From the NCBI GenBank assembly GCA_965213705.1, contig OZ243913.1, positions 2,656,001-2,720,000 of the forward strand: a DNA stretch of 64,000 nt, in the 5' to 3' direction. This document shows positions 4,616-46,796 of the stretch, piece after piece. The notes under the pieces were generated by a model. The model made no database searches. It was not told the origin of the DNA and saw only the letters and a program-made list of their open reading frames with translations. Position numbers and translations under genes: made by a program. The stretch is from Trueperaceae bacterium. GTDB taxonomy: Bacteria; Deinococcota; Deinococci; Deinococcales; Trueperaceae. Within the stretch, counting starts at the first letter, position 1. The number at the start of each line of letters is the position of its first letter.

Positions 4616-5116
4616 ATGGTGCGCTTAGACGCTCGAATCGTGCCGAACGAAAGTTTGGGGGGGCTCCAATTAAGAACTAAACTTCTCGAGCTTCAGGAAC
4701 TCGTGGCTGGTTTTCTCGACCCAAGTACCTTTCGTCTCATAAGTCCTTTCAACGCAGTTTACACACTTGCAGGCGGTGCCATAAAAATAGACGTCGACGT
4801 TCGTAATGGCAAAGTCTCTATGCTTTCTGCACTACCTGGCTATAGGGGAACATTATTCGAGAAGATTTATGTAGGAATGAAGGTGAAAGATGCTTTTGCT
4901 GCAGAACCTCGTTTGTACTATGACGAATTTACGGAGACTATAGTCTGTAAGGGGGTAAAAGGTTTGTCGATTGATGTTCCGGACATTCCATTGGCCTCTA
5001 ACATCCAAGACAAATCCCTTACGTTCTCGGATCAAGTTCCAGAAATGGACATTTCGTCGATATCTGTTTTTGCAGCTGAAATCGTGAGCCCAAAGGGGAA
5101 CCGTGGCTACTGGTAG
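4616..5116 (+). CDS. Hypothetical protein, low GC
   Basis: 166-aa ORF with SD GGAG; AT-rich relative to flanks. Confidence 0.65.
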   Translation: MVRLDARIVPNESLGGLQLRTKLLELQELVAGFLDPSTFRLISPFNAVYTLAGGAIKIDVDVRNGKVSMLSALPGYRGTLFEKIYVGMKVKDAFAAEPRLYYDEFTETIVCKGVKGLSIDVPDIPLASNIQDKSLTFSDQVPEMDISSISVFAAEIVSPKGNRGYW

Positions 5117-5229
5117 GCCTAAAGTGATGCCTCTTCTTGAACTTGACATAGTTTTATTCTAGAAATCTAATCACCTGTAGAACCCCCGACAGAATCCTCC
5201 TGTTACACTCGAGGCTTGGAGGTCTCCCC

Positions 5230-6120
5230 TTGCCAAATCCTTTATTCGCCCAACTGAGCGAGCACGTCTATTACCTGCCGGGAGCCGTCAACTGCGCAGT
5301 GGTGGTGAACGGCGGCGAGGCCGTGCTGGTCGACACGGGCGGCGATAAAGACTATGGCCGCGCCCTTCGTAAAGTTTGCGACGCCCTGAACGTCTCCCCC
5401 GTCGCCGTCCTCAACACCCATTCCCACGCCGACCACTACGGCGGCAACGACTATTTGCTGCGGCAGTTCGACGTGCCGGTCTACGCGCCCGCGTTTGAGG
5501 CGGGGATTTTGCAAAATCCTTACTTAGAGCCCGTTTACCTGTTCAACGGGGCCAAGCCTCTGCCCGAACTGATGTCAAAGTGGCTCCTCGCCAAACCCTC
5601 CAGGGTAGATGTCATTTTGGAGCCGGGAACGCTCGAGCTTATCGGCTTGCCGTTCGCAATCCTCGATACCTCCGGCCACGCGCACCGGCACGTGTCGGTC
5701 AAGGTGGGTGACGTGCTCATCGCCGCCGACGCCGTATTCGGTGCGGCGGTGTTGGGCAAGTATCCACTGCCGTTCGGGCAAGACATCGGCGGGCAGATAA
5801 AGAGTGCTCGTTTGGCGGAGGTGGGGGCTCGAGTGCTGTTGCCCGGTCACGGCGAACCGACCGAAGAGATTGAAGACCTCGTTGCCCGTAATCTCGAGAC
5901 TTTTCAACGCGCCGCCGACGCGGTCGAAGCTGCTTGTCTTGGGATTTTGACTGAAGAGGTTTTGAAAGAGGTCTGTAAAACGCTAGCTATCGAAATGCTC
6001 GACTTGCCACGTTTTTACCTTAACCGTTGCGTGGTCACGGCTTATTTGAGCTACCTGCGCGACGAAGGTCGGGTCGAGGTGGCGCTACACGAGAATAGCC
6101 TTGCCTGGCGGCGGTTGTAA
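5230..6120 (+). CDS. MBL-fold metallo-hydrolase
   Basis: LVDTG, THSHADHYGG, GH, D and PGHG metal-ligand motifs; SD GGAGG. Confidence 0.9.
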   Translation: MPNPLFAQLSEHVYYLPGAVNCAVVVNGGEAVLVDTGGDKDYGRALRKVCDALNVSPVAVLNTHSHADHYGGNDYLLRQFDVPVYAPAFEAGILQNPYLEPVYLFNGAKPLPELMSKWLLAKPSRVDVILEPGTLELIGLPFAILDTSGHAHRHVSVKVGDVLIAADAVFGAAVLGKYPLPFGQDIGGQIKSARLAEVGARVLLPGHGEPTEEIEDLVARNLETFQRAADAVEAACLGILTEEVLKEVCKTLAIEMLDLPRFYLNRCVVTAYLSYLRDEGRVEVALHENSLAWRRL

Positions 6121-42744: not shown

Positions 42745-42804
42745 AGACGGGCGCCGCTCGGCTTTGAACGGGGCTCGAAAGCTTCTTTAGTGGTTGAGGG
42801 AGCA

Positions 42805-43101
42805 ATGGACCATTTTGAAATTTCTCTGCCGCCCGGTACGGACGCCAAAGTTCTCGAGCGCCTCATCGACGAAACTTTGGAGCAAAGCGGTTTGAACGTC
42901 ACGCTGCGCGACACCCTCAAACAGTACTCGGGCTGCGTTCACTGGCACCTCAAACAGGGGCGGCAGTCGGGAACCCTGGAACTGACGCTGTGGCCCCGAG
43001 AACACCGCCTCTGGTTTTCGGTTCACAGAAACCGTACCGCTCCGTGGCTCGAAGAGGAAAGAAAGCGCCTCCACGCCGTTTTACTGGGCCGTTTGACTTG
43101 A
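42805..43101 (+). CDS. Hypothetical protein
   Basis: SD GAGGGAG; YSGCVHWHLK..GTLELTLW. Confidence 0.7.
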   Translation: MDHFEISLPPGTDAKVLERLIDETLEQSGLNVTLRDTLKQYSGCVHWHLKQGRQSGTLELTLWPREHRLWFSVHRNRTAPWLEEERKRLHAVLLGRLT

Positions 43102-43226
43102 GTCGAACTGCAGTTTTGAGTCGACAAGTTTTTCAAAGTCTCAGCCGAGCCCTCGGCGTGTGGCAAAATGGCTCGAGTATGAGTTGAAAATTCTTTGAAG
43201 CCGTTACAGCATTTTTAGAGGAGAGT

Positions 43227-43685
43227 TTGATGAAACTAGCCGAAGCCCTGATGGAGCGTGCGGACAGAAACCGCCGACTTCAGGAACTCCGTGAACGAAT
43301 TGTTCGCAACGCTCAGTACCAAGAAGGCGAAACGCCGGCCGAAGACCCGAACGAACTTCTTGAAGAGCACCAAGCTGCTTCTTTGGACTTCGAGCGTTTG
43401 ATTGTTCGCATCAACACCACCAACAACCAAGTGACTTTAGAAGACGGGAGGTCGATGGTCGAGGCACTTGCCCACCGGGACGTTATGAAGTTGAGACACG
43501 CGTTGTACAAGGCGCTCGCAGCCGCAGCCACGCCCCAACAAGACAGGTACAGCAAAAAAGAAATCAAGTTTATAGGTGCGGTCGACGTGAAAGAAATCCA
43601 GCGAGAGGCAGACCGACTCGCTAAAGAATATCGTGAACTCGATGCTCTCATTCAGCAAGCGAACTGGAACAACGACCTTCTTTAA
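43227..43685 (+). CDS. DIP1984/DUF6847-family coiled-coil protein
   Basis: MKLAEALMERAD, QEGETPAEDP, RINTTN, EALAHRD, RYSKKEI, RELDALIQQANW. Confidence 0.9.
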   Translation: MMKLAEALMERADRNRRLQELRERIVRNAQYQEGETPAEDPNELLEEHQAASLDFERLIVRINTTNNQVTLEDGRSMVEALAHRDVMKLRHALYKALAAAATPQQDRYSKKEIKFIGAVDVKEIQREADRLAKEYRELDALIQQANWNNDLL

Positions 43686-43893
43686 GTCAGGTTTGGTAGC
43701 TTTCAGCAAGAAGCGAACACAACCCGCCAACTGGGTCAAGTTGGATACTGGTTTGAGTGAAGGGCAGCTCCGTGGGTTCGACTCCCAAAGCCACAGCTTA
43801 GCTCAGTACTGTTACAAGCGTAAAGCGTACCGTGTACGGTTACTACCGTGTGTTGATTTTGTTGAAGGTGAGGGTGGGTAAGGGGAACCTGAC
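43686..43893 (+). ncRNA. Candidate structured ncRNA with a permuted tRNA-like module
   Basis: Terminal stem 43686-43694/43885-43893, 12-bp stem 43700-43711/43857-43868, T-loop TTCGACT and TAGCTCAG D-arm motif. Confidence 0.7.
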
Positions 43894-43941
43894 GATAGCG
43901 CTGAAGGAGTACTGAAAAAGCAGTCTCGAGAGGTGAAAAGT

Positions 43942-45837
43942 ATGCCAACCGAACAAGCCGAACATACCGAATTCAAAGCTGAAATCAAACAAGTTTTGGA
44001 CATCCTCATCCACTCGCTTTACACCGAAAAAGAAATTTTCCTGCGCGAACTCGTCTCGAACGCGTCGGACGCGCTGCACCGGCTCAAGCTCGAGAGCCTG
44101 AAAAGCCAGGACATGGTGAGTCCGGGGGCCGAACTGGGGATTTGGCTGGAGGGTGACCCGCAAACCGGCACCCTCACGGTGCGCGACAGCGGCGTCGGCT
44201 TGTCCCAAGAAGAGATGGGGCGCTACCTGGGCACCATCGCGAGTTCGGGGGCGAAACAGTTTATCGAGACGATGAAAAGTCTCAACCAGGGCGACACCAA
44301 AACGACCGCCGACGTCATCGGGCAGTTCGGGGTGGGTTTTTACTCGGTGTTCATGGTCGCCGACGAAGTCACGGTGACCTCACGCTCTTACAAGCCCGAC
44401 GCCGAGGCGGCCTACTGGCGCTCGACGGGCGAGGGTACTTATCAAACGGGTCCGGCCGACAAGGACGAGCGCGGCACGACTGTCACCCTCAAGCTCAAGG
44501 ACGATGCTAAAGAGTTCGCCGAGGCGTACCGGTTGCGGCAAATCGTCAAGGAGCATTCCAACTTCGTCGCGTTTCCCGTCTACCTAAAAGAAAAGGGCGA
44601 ATGGCAGCAAATTAACGAGCGCACCGCGCTGTGGCGCGAATCCCCGCAGGGGGTCGAGGTGGACAAGTACCGGCGCTTTTACCAGGAACTCACCTTCGAC
44701 CCTCGAGAGCCGTTGCGCACGATTCACTTTACGACCGACATGCCGATTCAGTTTTACGCGCTGCTGTTCGTCCCGTCGCGCCGCGACCACAAGCTGTTTA
44801 CCAACGCCGACGACTACGGCCTCAAGCTGTACGCGCGCAAAGTCCTGATTCAAGACGAGTTCAAGGCGTTGCTGCCGCCCTACCTGCGCTTTTTAGAGGG
44901 CGTCGTGGACTCCGAGGACCTGCCGCTGAACGTCTCGCGCGAAACCGTCCAGGCGACGCCGACGGTGGCGCGGATTCGCAAGGTATTGGTTGGGCGCGTC
45001 GCCAGCGACTTGGAGCGCATGGCCGAGCACGAGCCCGAGCAGTTTGAAACGTTTTACAAAGAGTTCGGCACGTTTCTTAAAGAGGGCGTCGCCAGCGACC
45101 CTGGCAGCGCCGAAAGATTCATCGGCCTGCTGCGTTTTCCCTCGACAAAAACTGAGGGCGACGCGTTGACCTCGCTCGAGGCCTACGTTGAACGCGTGAA
45201 GCCCGAGCAGAAAGAAATCTACTACGTGTTGGGCGACGACCTGGCAACCGTGGCGCGGAGTTCTCACCTAGAGTATTTCCGCAAGCACGACCTGGAAGTC
45301 CTCTACCTCACCGACCCCGTCGACAGCTTTATGCTTGTGGGCTTGAACGAGTACGGCGGCAAGGCGCTCAAAAACATCGACGACGCCGACCTGGACCTGC
45401 CCGCAACCGACGAGAAAAAGCTCGAGCTTCCCAAAGACGAACGCTTTATCGCGCTGAGCGCTTTTGTCAAACAAACTTTGGGCGACCGCGTGGAGGCGGT
45501 ACGGGAGAGCAAAGTCCTGACCGACGCCGCGGCGCGGCTGGTCAACCCCCCGAACGCCGGCCCGACCAGCTTTTACCGCGCCCAGCGCATGATGGGCCGC
45601 GACTTCGAGGTGCCGAAGAAAATTCTCGAGCTCAACCCGAAAAGCCCACTCGTCAAGGCTTTGGGCGAACGCTTGAGGGCAAACGACAAAGACCCGCTGT
45701 TGCCGGTCTTAATCGAGCAAGTATACGAGAACGAACTGCTCATGGAAGGCGGCCACCCCAACCCCGCCGAGATGGTTCCGCGCATCCAAAAGCTCATGGC
45801 GGCGGTTGCCGAACCCGACGGACAAGAGCGAAACTGA
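43942..45837 (+). CDS. htpG: Molecular chaperone HtpG (Hsp90)
   Basis: FLRELVSNASDA, IGQFGVGFYS, DSEDLPLNVSRE, LELNP. Confidence 0.97.
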   Translation: MPTEQAEHTEFKAEIKQVLDILIHSLYTEKEIFLRELVSNASDALHRLKLESLKSQDMVSPGAELGIWLEGDPQTGTLTVRDSGVGLSQEEMGRYLGTIASSGAKQFIETMKSLNQGDTKTTADVIGQFGVGFYSVFMVADEVTVTSRSYKPDAEAAYWRSTGEGTYQTGPADKDERGTTVTLKLKDDAKEFAEAYRLRQIVKEHSNFVAFPVYLKEKGEWQQINERTALWRESPQGVEVDKYRRFYQELTFDPREPLRTIHFTTDMPIQFYALLFVPSRRDHKLFTNADDYGLKLYARKVLIQDEFKALLPPYLRFLEGVVDSEDLPLNVSRETVQATPTVARIRKVLVGRVASDLERMAEHEPEQFETFYKEFGTFLKEGVASDPGSAERFIGLLRFPSTKTEGDALTSLEAYVERVKPEQKEIYYVLGDDLATVARSSHLEYFRKHDLEVLYLTDPVDSFMLVGLNEYGGKALKNIDDADLDLPATDEKKLELPKDERFIALSAFVKQTLGDRVEAVRESKVLTDAAARLVNPPNAGPTSFYRAQRMMGRDFEVPKKILELNPKSPLVKALGERLRANDKDPLLPVLIEQVYENELLMEGGHPNPAEMVPRIQKLMAAVAEPDGQERN

Positions 45838-46226: not shown

Positions 46227-46619
46227 TTAGTAGCGGTCGCGGCCACCCCCGCCACGGCCACCCCCGCCGCCCCGGCCGCCCTGGTCACCACCACGGTCGC
46301 CACCACCACGGCCACCGCCGCCGTAGCCGCCGTTTCTACCGCCGCCAGTTCCGCCGCCACCGCCACCCCGACCGCCCCCGAAGTCACCACGGCCCCGGTC
46401 GCTTACCGGCGCAGCGTTCGTTACCTTAACGTCGGCGGCTTGCAAGCCCTTCTGGCCCTGCTCGGTACGGTACTCGACTTCGTCGCCTTCGTTCAGGTTT
46501 TTAAAACCGCTGCCTTGGATGGCCGAGAAGTGCACGAACACGTCTGCGCCGCCGTCGTCCTGCTGAATGAAACCAAAACCTTTTTCGCCGTTGAACCACT
46601 TTACTTTGCCTGTCGGCAT
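46227..46619 (-). CDS. Cold-shock protein with Gly/RGG-rich tail
   Basis: [21 protein letters not shown], then about 55 aa rich in G/R. Confidence 0.93.
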
Positions 46620-46796
46620 GGTGTCTCCCGGTCTCAGCTTGGAATACCAGAGGTCACGACGTCACCTGTAGAAACGTCGTTGTCTGGGGCTGAGCGTTCA
46701 TACCAGTATAAGGCTTAGACGCTTTTTAGGCTACCGTTTAGGCGTCGACTTTCACCGAACCGCTTGTGTTCAAAAAATGCCGCCTCGCACACGCGC

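Follow-up and report, generated by a model that had tools for sequence, protein, structure and literature searches.

The window, a stretch of 64,000 nucleotides from a Trueperaceae genome, carries on its forward strand a gene of the DUF6847/DIP1984 family, a structured non-coding RNA that begins at the base after the stop codon, and htpG (Table 1). The open reading frame matched the DUF6847 profile with E 3.6e-54 and the DIP1984 profile with E 5.5e-57, each above the curated cut-off; the original prediction had placed it in this family with a start at 43227, and the family was confirmed, the start being likely the ATG at 43230 and not the TTG at 43227. Fold searches gave PDB 3kdq as the sole clear match (E 2.9e-32, 42% identity, TM 0.92); the fold is all-helical, as expected there; no RNA-binding fold and no nuclease were matched in these searches, and Snf7/PspA rows at Z 8–8.5 were set aside as being at the level usual for long helices. 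ESM Atlas returned only clusters without names, at 0.89–0.90, and PADLOC and PHROG searches gave no match for the protein. The family counted 1866 representatives at E ≤ 1e-10; in 138 representatives the residues R10, R23, R83, R106, R135, K2, K113 and W146 were near-invariant and the proteins were net acidic (median charge −2); the loop QDRYSKKEIK is conserved and has low confidence in the structure model. DUF6847 was also found as a C-terminal fusion in longer proteins, P0138 (368 aa) and P0151 (516 aa). The window genome (G000; 4.25 Mb, 98% complete) holds one DIP1984 gene and one copy of the RNA.

Table 1. Features of the DIP1984 locus in the window (positions of the window; all on the + strand).
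Feature	Position	Strand	Properties and basis
DUF6847/DIP1984-family gene	43230..43685	+	151 aa, four long helices; profile and fold searches
Structured non-coding RNA, full-length form	43686..43893	+	208 nt; covariation; model match 149.6 bits; single genomic copy
P1, 5' strand	43686..43694	+	pairs with 43885-43893; swapped-partner controls
Conserved GGUAG	43695..43699	+	opposite YGAG (43869-72); alignment
P2, 5' strand	43699..43711	+	pairs with 43857-43869; RNAalifold, MI-APC, covariation
Conserved internal loop RGCG and P3 5' strand	43712..43721	+	loop opposite GA, C43714-G43855 pair; covariation
P3 strands	43716-21/43849-54	+	covariation
P3a, variable hairpin	43727..43744	+	segment folding against shuffles
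P5 hairpin (GAGU/GCUC)	43755..43770	+	loop with GGGC 43762-65; 0/1000 swaps
tRNA-like T-arm, optional	43773..43787	+	loop UUCGACU; motif in 34/84 homologues
GCUC, 3' strand of supported pseudoknot	43801..43804	+	pairs with GGGC 43762-65; covariation
Repeat tract	43805..43848	+	about six (G/U)YA(C/U/A) units every 6–8 nt, ends in conserved ACNACC; alignment
G-rich loop GAGGGYGGGNNNGGGG	43870..43885	+	Gs invariant, spacers variable
htpG, incidental neighbour	43933..45837	+	profile search, locus comparison

That 43686-43893 is a real conserved structured RNA is virtually certain, and the proof is comparative, since the 208 nt taken alone fold no more stably than shuffles (z −0.19; 82 of 200 shuffles equally good). 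For covariation, 55 full-length, non-duplicate homologues were chosen by their 3' G motif, short forms being left out; P2 and P3 were recovered from the alignment unaided by RNAalifold, and a model of 17 pairs (P2/P3, the C-G loop pair and GGGC/GCYC) had two-sided changes at all 17, so that the covariation expected across phyla was found. Of 913 cells in this alignment, 94% were paired, a level reached by 0/500 shuffles; with slid partners as control, pairing dropped to 30–37%; the ten top MI-APC column pairs were all P2/P3 pairs. In 76 dereplicated sequences P1, P5 and the GGGC/GCYC pseudoknot were each better than partner-swapped controls (0/1000 each). The strings and coordinates given in the original prediction for P1 (43686-94/43885-93), P2 (43700-11/43857-68), P3 and the hairpin 43727-44 were all correct; its three helices are upheld by covariation (P2, P3) and by swapped partners (P1), and its hairpin stands, the segment being more stable than its shuffles (−6.8 vs −4.5 kcal/mol). 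Its pseudoknot ACCCGCC/GGUGGGU had to be given up: the two strings are complementary in the window but do not covary (Watson–Crick runs 3.43 vs 3.39 with swapped partners, 294/1000; with G-U pairs 49/1000), and they are in competition with the hairpin 43727-44. Two pairings of ACNACC, one with the G tract and one with GGUAG, also did no better than swapped partners and were rejected. The minimum-energy fold of the window RNA is predicted to pair part of the repeat tract, and lies 20 kcal/mol below the covariation model taken without its pseudoknot.

The Rfam 15 covariance-model search of the window gave no match over the RNA at E ≤ 1; on 20 homologous loci at the gathering score Rfam returned only tRNAs, located elsewhere in the loci, and neither ARAGORN nor Rfam called a tRNA or tmRNA at 43686-43893.

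From the outside inwards the RNA is built of P1, an internal loop with GGUA opposite GAGGGYGGGNNNGGG, P2, the RGCG/GA loop and P3; GGUAG opposite YGAG presumably resembles a loop-E/bulged-G motif. Inside P3 follow P3a, P5, the optional T-arm, which lies between GGGC of the P5 loop and its downstream partner GCYC, and then the tract that runs back to P3. The pseudoknot was met as GGGC/GCCC, GAGC/GCUC, GGAA/UUCC, GCAC/GUGC, GGGU/ACCC, GCGC/GCGC and GGGA/UCCC, and it takes up the D-like loop of the RNA, the T-loop motif being present in 34/84. The length of the repeat tract is 44–47 nt in 75 of 84 homologues; in 71 tracts the autocorrelation of YA steps peaks at 6–8, 13–14 and 20–21 nt (z 7–14), G is almost missing after the A of these steps, and the tract is no more folded than shuffles. 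Judged from these sequences, the tract is likely single-stranded and a putative protein-binding site. For the G-rich loop no pairing partner was found among the homologues, and it is missing from the short form of one genus (g32); it may form a G-quadruplex, which the invariant Gs would fit, yet there are only three G runs. At L081, L086, L088 and L116 the RNA is of a longer subtype, which starts with GGUGUAG, measures about 245 nt and differs in its pseudoknot region, and a phage (L122:4467-4626) has a minimal 160-nt form in which the outer stems, the G-rich loop and the repeat tract are present and no clear pseudoknot is seen.

The locus sample comprised 30 loci from the phylum, the best 80 of 581 confirmed from GTDB genomes, and 14 viral loci; conservation of the DNA past the stop codon was visible by eye in Deinococcota, Cyanobacteria, Proteobacteria, Bacillota, Actinomycetota, Acidobacteriota, Chloroflexota, Bacteroidota and Desulfobacterota. 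The covariance model R1 matched 88 of 97 sources, in 87 directly 3' of the DIP1984 gene (outside the training set 33/42 and 32/42, respectively), and the coupling of a structured RNA to this gene, as originally predicted, holds. Among the misses, two lay at contig ends, one in a masked stretch, and two were loci with weak, partial protein matches; the others were L116 and L118, where the repeat tract is visible by eye but was missed by the model, and L060 and L120, where the gene is present and the R1 search found no recognisable RNA. In genus g32 only the core of P3, pseudoknot and repeats is left (11/22 at E < 0.01). Scanning of 101 whole genomes, with strict filters by which many short forms are missed, placed 15 of 17 R1 matches directly 3' of a DIP1984 gene, the other two being 43-nt scraps; at 3/3 loci with a broken or partial DIP1984 gene no RNA was matched. 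The RNA was present in 6/6 plasmid and phage records (plasmids of Picosynechococcus, Mycobacterium, Streptomyces and Acinetobacter; an Enterococcus record), and the protein family lies on 371 plasmid records, 342 of them in Acinetobacter. Behind the Acinetobacter plasmid 'septicolysin' (sep) gene, a DIP1984 member, a diverged RNA copy was found (L125:2993-3172, pAB0057); its naming as a toxin seems to be an annotation error. Phage L113 has two RNA copies (4986-5190 and 5787-5995), which follow the gene at distances of 0.5 and 1.3 kb and have an endonuclease VII gene between them; a second, weak copy lies at L092:5774-5922.

Expression was read from a relative of the same order with the short RNA form (G037, locus L131), in three raw random-primed RNA-seq runs of one study. 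Sense depth over the ORF was 28, 57 and 48, against 1949, 3062 and 2246 over the RNA, an excess of 70-, 54- and 47-fold, the strand being assigned by the usual library convention. The molecule has sharp ends, approximate in random-primed libraries, at 1586/1587 (minor 1579) and 1736/1739 (minor 1753); this is a discrete RNA of about 150 nt, in agreement with the model match 1587-1728. The outer stem (1571-81/1732-42) holds the processed ends, 1586/87 being the start of the inner stem, and the ends 1579 (minor 5') and 1736 (main 3') leave a 2-nt 3' overhang. The discrete transcript of about 200 nt that had been predicted was thus met in a relative as a discrete and abundant RNA, its size there being that of the short form; such a molecule is very probably present in the window organism too. 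A RIP-seq contig (X13), one 37-kb piece, was uninformative.

Genes of RNA repair (RtcB, Ro60-like, Rnl) lie within 4 kb of the pair in at least 15 of 80 genome loci from 5–6 lineages, the count being a lower bound in that the queries came from these loci: RtcB at L049, L102 and L089/L095/L101, Ro60 at L045, L057 and L058, Rnl1 with phosphoesterase at L045 and L050. A Ro60 or TROVE-like neighbour was found in 9/80 loci, with a TROVE/vWA-like protein upstream of the gene in six Microcoleus loci. The latter (479 aa; L046:2488-3924, also L047, L051, L056, L061, L080) lies directly upstream of the gene and next to a tRNA-Lys gene, has no Pfam match and is TROVE/vWA-like by ESM Atlas and PHROG 850; it may be a divergent Ro60-like family of Cyanobacteria. 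RtcB adjoins the pair in 4 of 28 RtcB-bearing genomes, with about 0.1 expected by chance (estimated from the sizes of windows and genomes). Repair genes often accompany the pair but are not required parts: 65/80 loci have none nearby, RtcB occurs in 28/50 genomes and TROVE in at least 6/50 (strong in 2; divergent proteins like the Microcoleus neighbour escape the Pfam TROVE model), and the window genome gave no RtcB, TROVE, Rnl or TROVE-like match. Of the 12 viral loci scanned, 5 are inside arrays of 9–24 tRNAs, and in phage loci L111 and L116 the next tRNA abuts the 3' end of the RNA. The nearest neighbours, 85 proteins upstream and 84 downstream, were otherwise a varied set; toxin-antitoxin genes made up 6 of these 169, and many lie around L126. 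In an Armatimonadota genome a reverse transcriptase with HEAT repeats, likely defence-associated, lies at a distance of 2 kb from the gene (L086:6513-8444, minus strand). According to the accessible part of PMC8421152, translational stress induces rtcB together with long tRNA arrays, in keeping with this context; the DIP1984/RNA family is not mentioned in that part.

The explanation we propose, which as a whole stands at an even chance, is that the RNA is processed out of the 3' part of the DIP1984 message, and that an oligomer of the protein holds it in a complex that responds to RNA damage. The RNA would be co-transcribed with the gene and then released as a stable, abundant molecule. Cleavage by RNase III leaves a 2-nt 3' overhang; because the ends at L131 give such an overhang in the outer stem and the main 5' ends mark the inner stem, an RNase III-like cut of the outer stem (1579/1736) may be followed by 5' trimming to the inner stem (1586/87). 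The RNA probably binds the DIP1984 protein. P3 and the pseudoknot would clamp an unstructured tract of fixed length, and such a tract with YA every ~7 nt is the design of RNAs read by ring oligomers; fixed length, periodicity and survival of the same core in short forms point to a counted protein-binding site, one subunit holding each ~7-nt repeat, with the conserved arginines and W146 as candidate contacts. The net acidic charge of the protein, its lack of a match to an RNA-binding fold and the minimum-energy fold that pairs part of the tract count against this. TRAP, HutP and Hfq are ring oligomers that bind mRNA leaders; DIP1984 would resemble them in reading a short motif at fixed spacing, one per subunit, whereas their folds are unrelated to it and the RNA here is dedicated and co-encoded. 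The weakest step is the RNA-damage role, to which we give somewhat less than an even chance: the RNA would serve as sentinel or decoy, and its being nicked or protected would signal or dampen a ribotoxin attack. This reading is favoured over a toxin-antitoxin pair, a stabiliser in cis and a Ro60 tether because the pair adjoins RNA ligases, Ro60-like proteins and phage tRNA arrays, and the YA(C/U/A) steps of the tract resemble the sites of PemK/MazF-type RNases. More tentatively still, a DIP1984 ring with a pseudoknot-clamped RNA might be a widespread new class of ribonucleoprotein, used by bacteria and by phages with tRNA arrays, the 7-nt YA repeats serving as tripwire or sponge for RNA-cutting toxins, and this might be the real function of the Acinetobacter plasmid 'septicolysin'.

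The pair might instead be a type III-like toxin-antitoxin or abortive-infection system, in which a toxic DIP1984 protein is neutralised by the RNA. In ToxIN/AbiQ systems, which occur on plasmids, one protein gene goes with a processed and abundant RNA that has a pseudoknot. The DIP1984 RNA likewise shows a great excess over the message (in G037), a pseudoknot, a tie to one gene and many plasmid records, above all in Acinetobacter; gene and RNA are also lost together, and toxin-antitoxin genes are among the neighbours, with many near L126. Against this stand an all-helical fold with no nuclease match, a single RNA downstream in place of a repeat array upstream, the lack of any PADLOC or PHROG match and the carriage of the pair by phages among tRNAs, so that this reading is considered unlikely. 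Still less probable is a 3' UTR that acts in cis by stabilising or autoregulating the DIP1984 message, the abundant fragment being a decay-resistant leftover: the RNA always lies directly past the stop codon, and a closed stem with a pseudoknot would withstand nucleases, but the conserved tertiary design, the optional T-arm, the fixed-length tract and the 47–70-fold excess exceed the needs of a stabiliser, and in L111 and L116 the RNA ends at the next tRNA. The least probable reading is a heat-shock element tied to htpG, the gene from which the original prediction drew its stress link. It had in its favour that htpG starts 40–50 nt past the RNA with no terminator between; htpG adjoins the DIP1984 gene at none of the loci L002-L124, and no match to the HAIR or CIRCE consensus motifs was found upstream of the gene in the window.

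That the RNA is a divergent Y RNA, by which Ro60 would be tethered to DIP1984 as its effector, is very improbable, though RGCGAR/UUGAY is similar to the Ro site, a T-arm is present and Ro60 or TROVE-like genes lie near the pair in L045, L057, L058 and the six Microcoleus loci. In the accessible parts of PMC4201824 and 10.1101/312249 the Ro60 (Rsr)/Y RNA/YrlA modules join a protein gene to an adjacent tRNA-mimicking RNA, often near RtcB or RNA ligases and also in phages, and bacterial Y RNAs carry the motif GNCGAAN0-1G near the 5' end (PMC4201824). This motif was found in 14/84 of the DIP1984-linked RNAs and is absent here (AGCGAAC) and from the RNAs near Ro60-like genes; the Rfam YrlA and Y RNA models gave no match; in the window no Ro60 gene lies within 4 kb on the same strand. 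DIP1984 is unrelated to Ro60 and the pair occurs without it, the T-arm is optional, and Y RNAs have nothing that corresponds to the pseudoknot, the heptad tract or the G-rich loop. By motif and gene context the RNA does not class as a Y RNA, and Ro60 as obligate partner was rejected on its rarity (the 6/50 genomes above, a lower bound; none in the window genome).

Band-7 with b7a-tRNA is a further protein with a tRNA-like RNA adjoining RtcB, as given in the accessible part of 10.1101/312249; there the b7a-tRNA strongly resembles a whole tRNA, whereas the DIP1984 RNA had no tRNA call and DIP1984 is not a Band-7 protein. By context, the pair may work like the Ro60–Y RNA or Band-7–b7a-tRNA modules. 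GOLLD and ROOL, in the accounts accessible, likewise belong to tRNA arrays and phages and are large and ornate, but they are much larger than the DIP1984 RNA and assemble from RNA only, and the DIP1984 RNA has no Rfam match. Literature on DIP1984/DUF6847/PF20935 and septicolysin with non-coding RNA described no function and no partner RNA; the window protein and 3kdq are members of one family, which one plasmid record names septicolysin. No description of the RNA was found in literature including the accessible parts of PMC4201824, 10.1101/312249, PMC8421152, PMC13141974 and PMC11109978, nor in the supplements of PMC8040213 (searched in part) and PMC8217566, and it may be an unnamed catalogue entry.

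An abundant RNA class across many phyla, phages and plasmids is thereby added, and 3kdq, an orphan of structural genomics, is given a concrete hypothesis: that its ligand is the RNA encoded just after its own gene. This RNA is short and is strongly expressed in a relative with public RNA-seq, and the protein has a crystal structure, so that binding, structure and phenotype are all testable. If the proposal is true, the gene called 'septicolysin' on hundreds of Acinetobacter plasmids is to be reinterpreted, and the RNA-damage conflicts of phages and bacteria gain a new player.

In the flanks of the window locus, the direct repeat TTGAGTCGA occurs twice, 19 nt apart, in an AT-richer gap upstream of the gene (43097-43124); it is a possible operator candidate and not a full HAIR site. 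An ORF of 103 aa (42790-43101, plus strand) had no Pfam, NCBIfam, PADLOC or PHROG match and no relative in the compared loci. A cold-shock protein with a long Gly/Arg-rich tail is encoded at 46227-46619 (plus strand), and over 46385-46707 (minus strand) Rfam gave a weak cspA thermoregulator, below the gathering score; the cspA-like reading is on the plus strand in the six-frame list and on the minus strand in the Rfam alignment.
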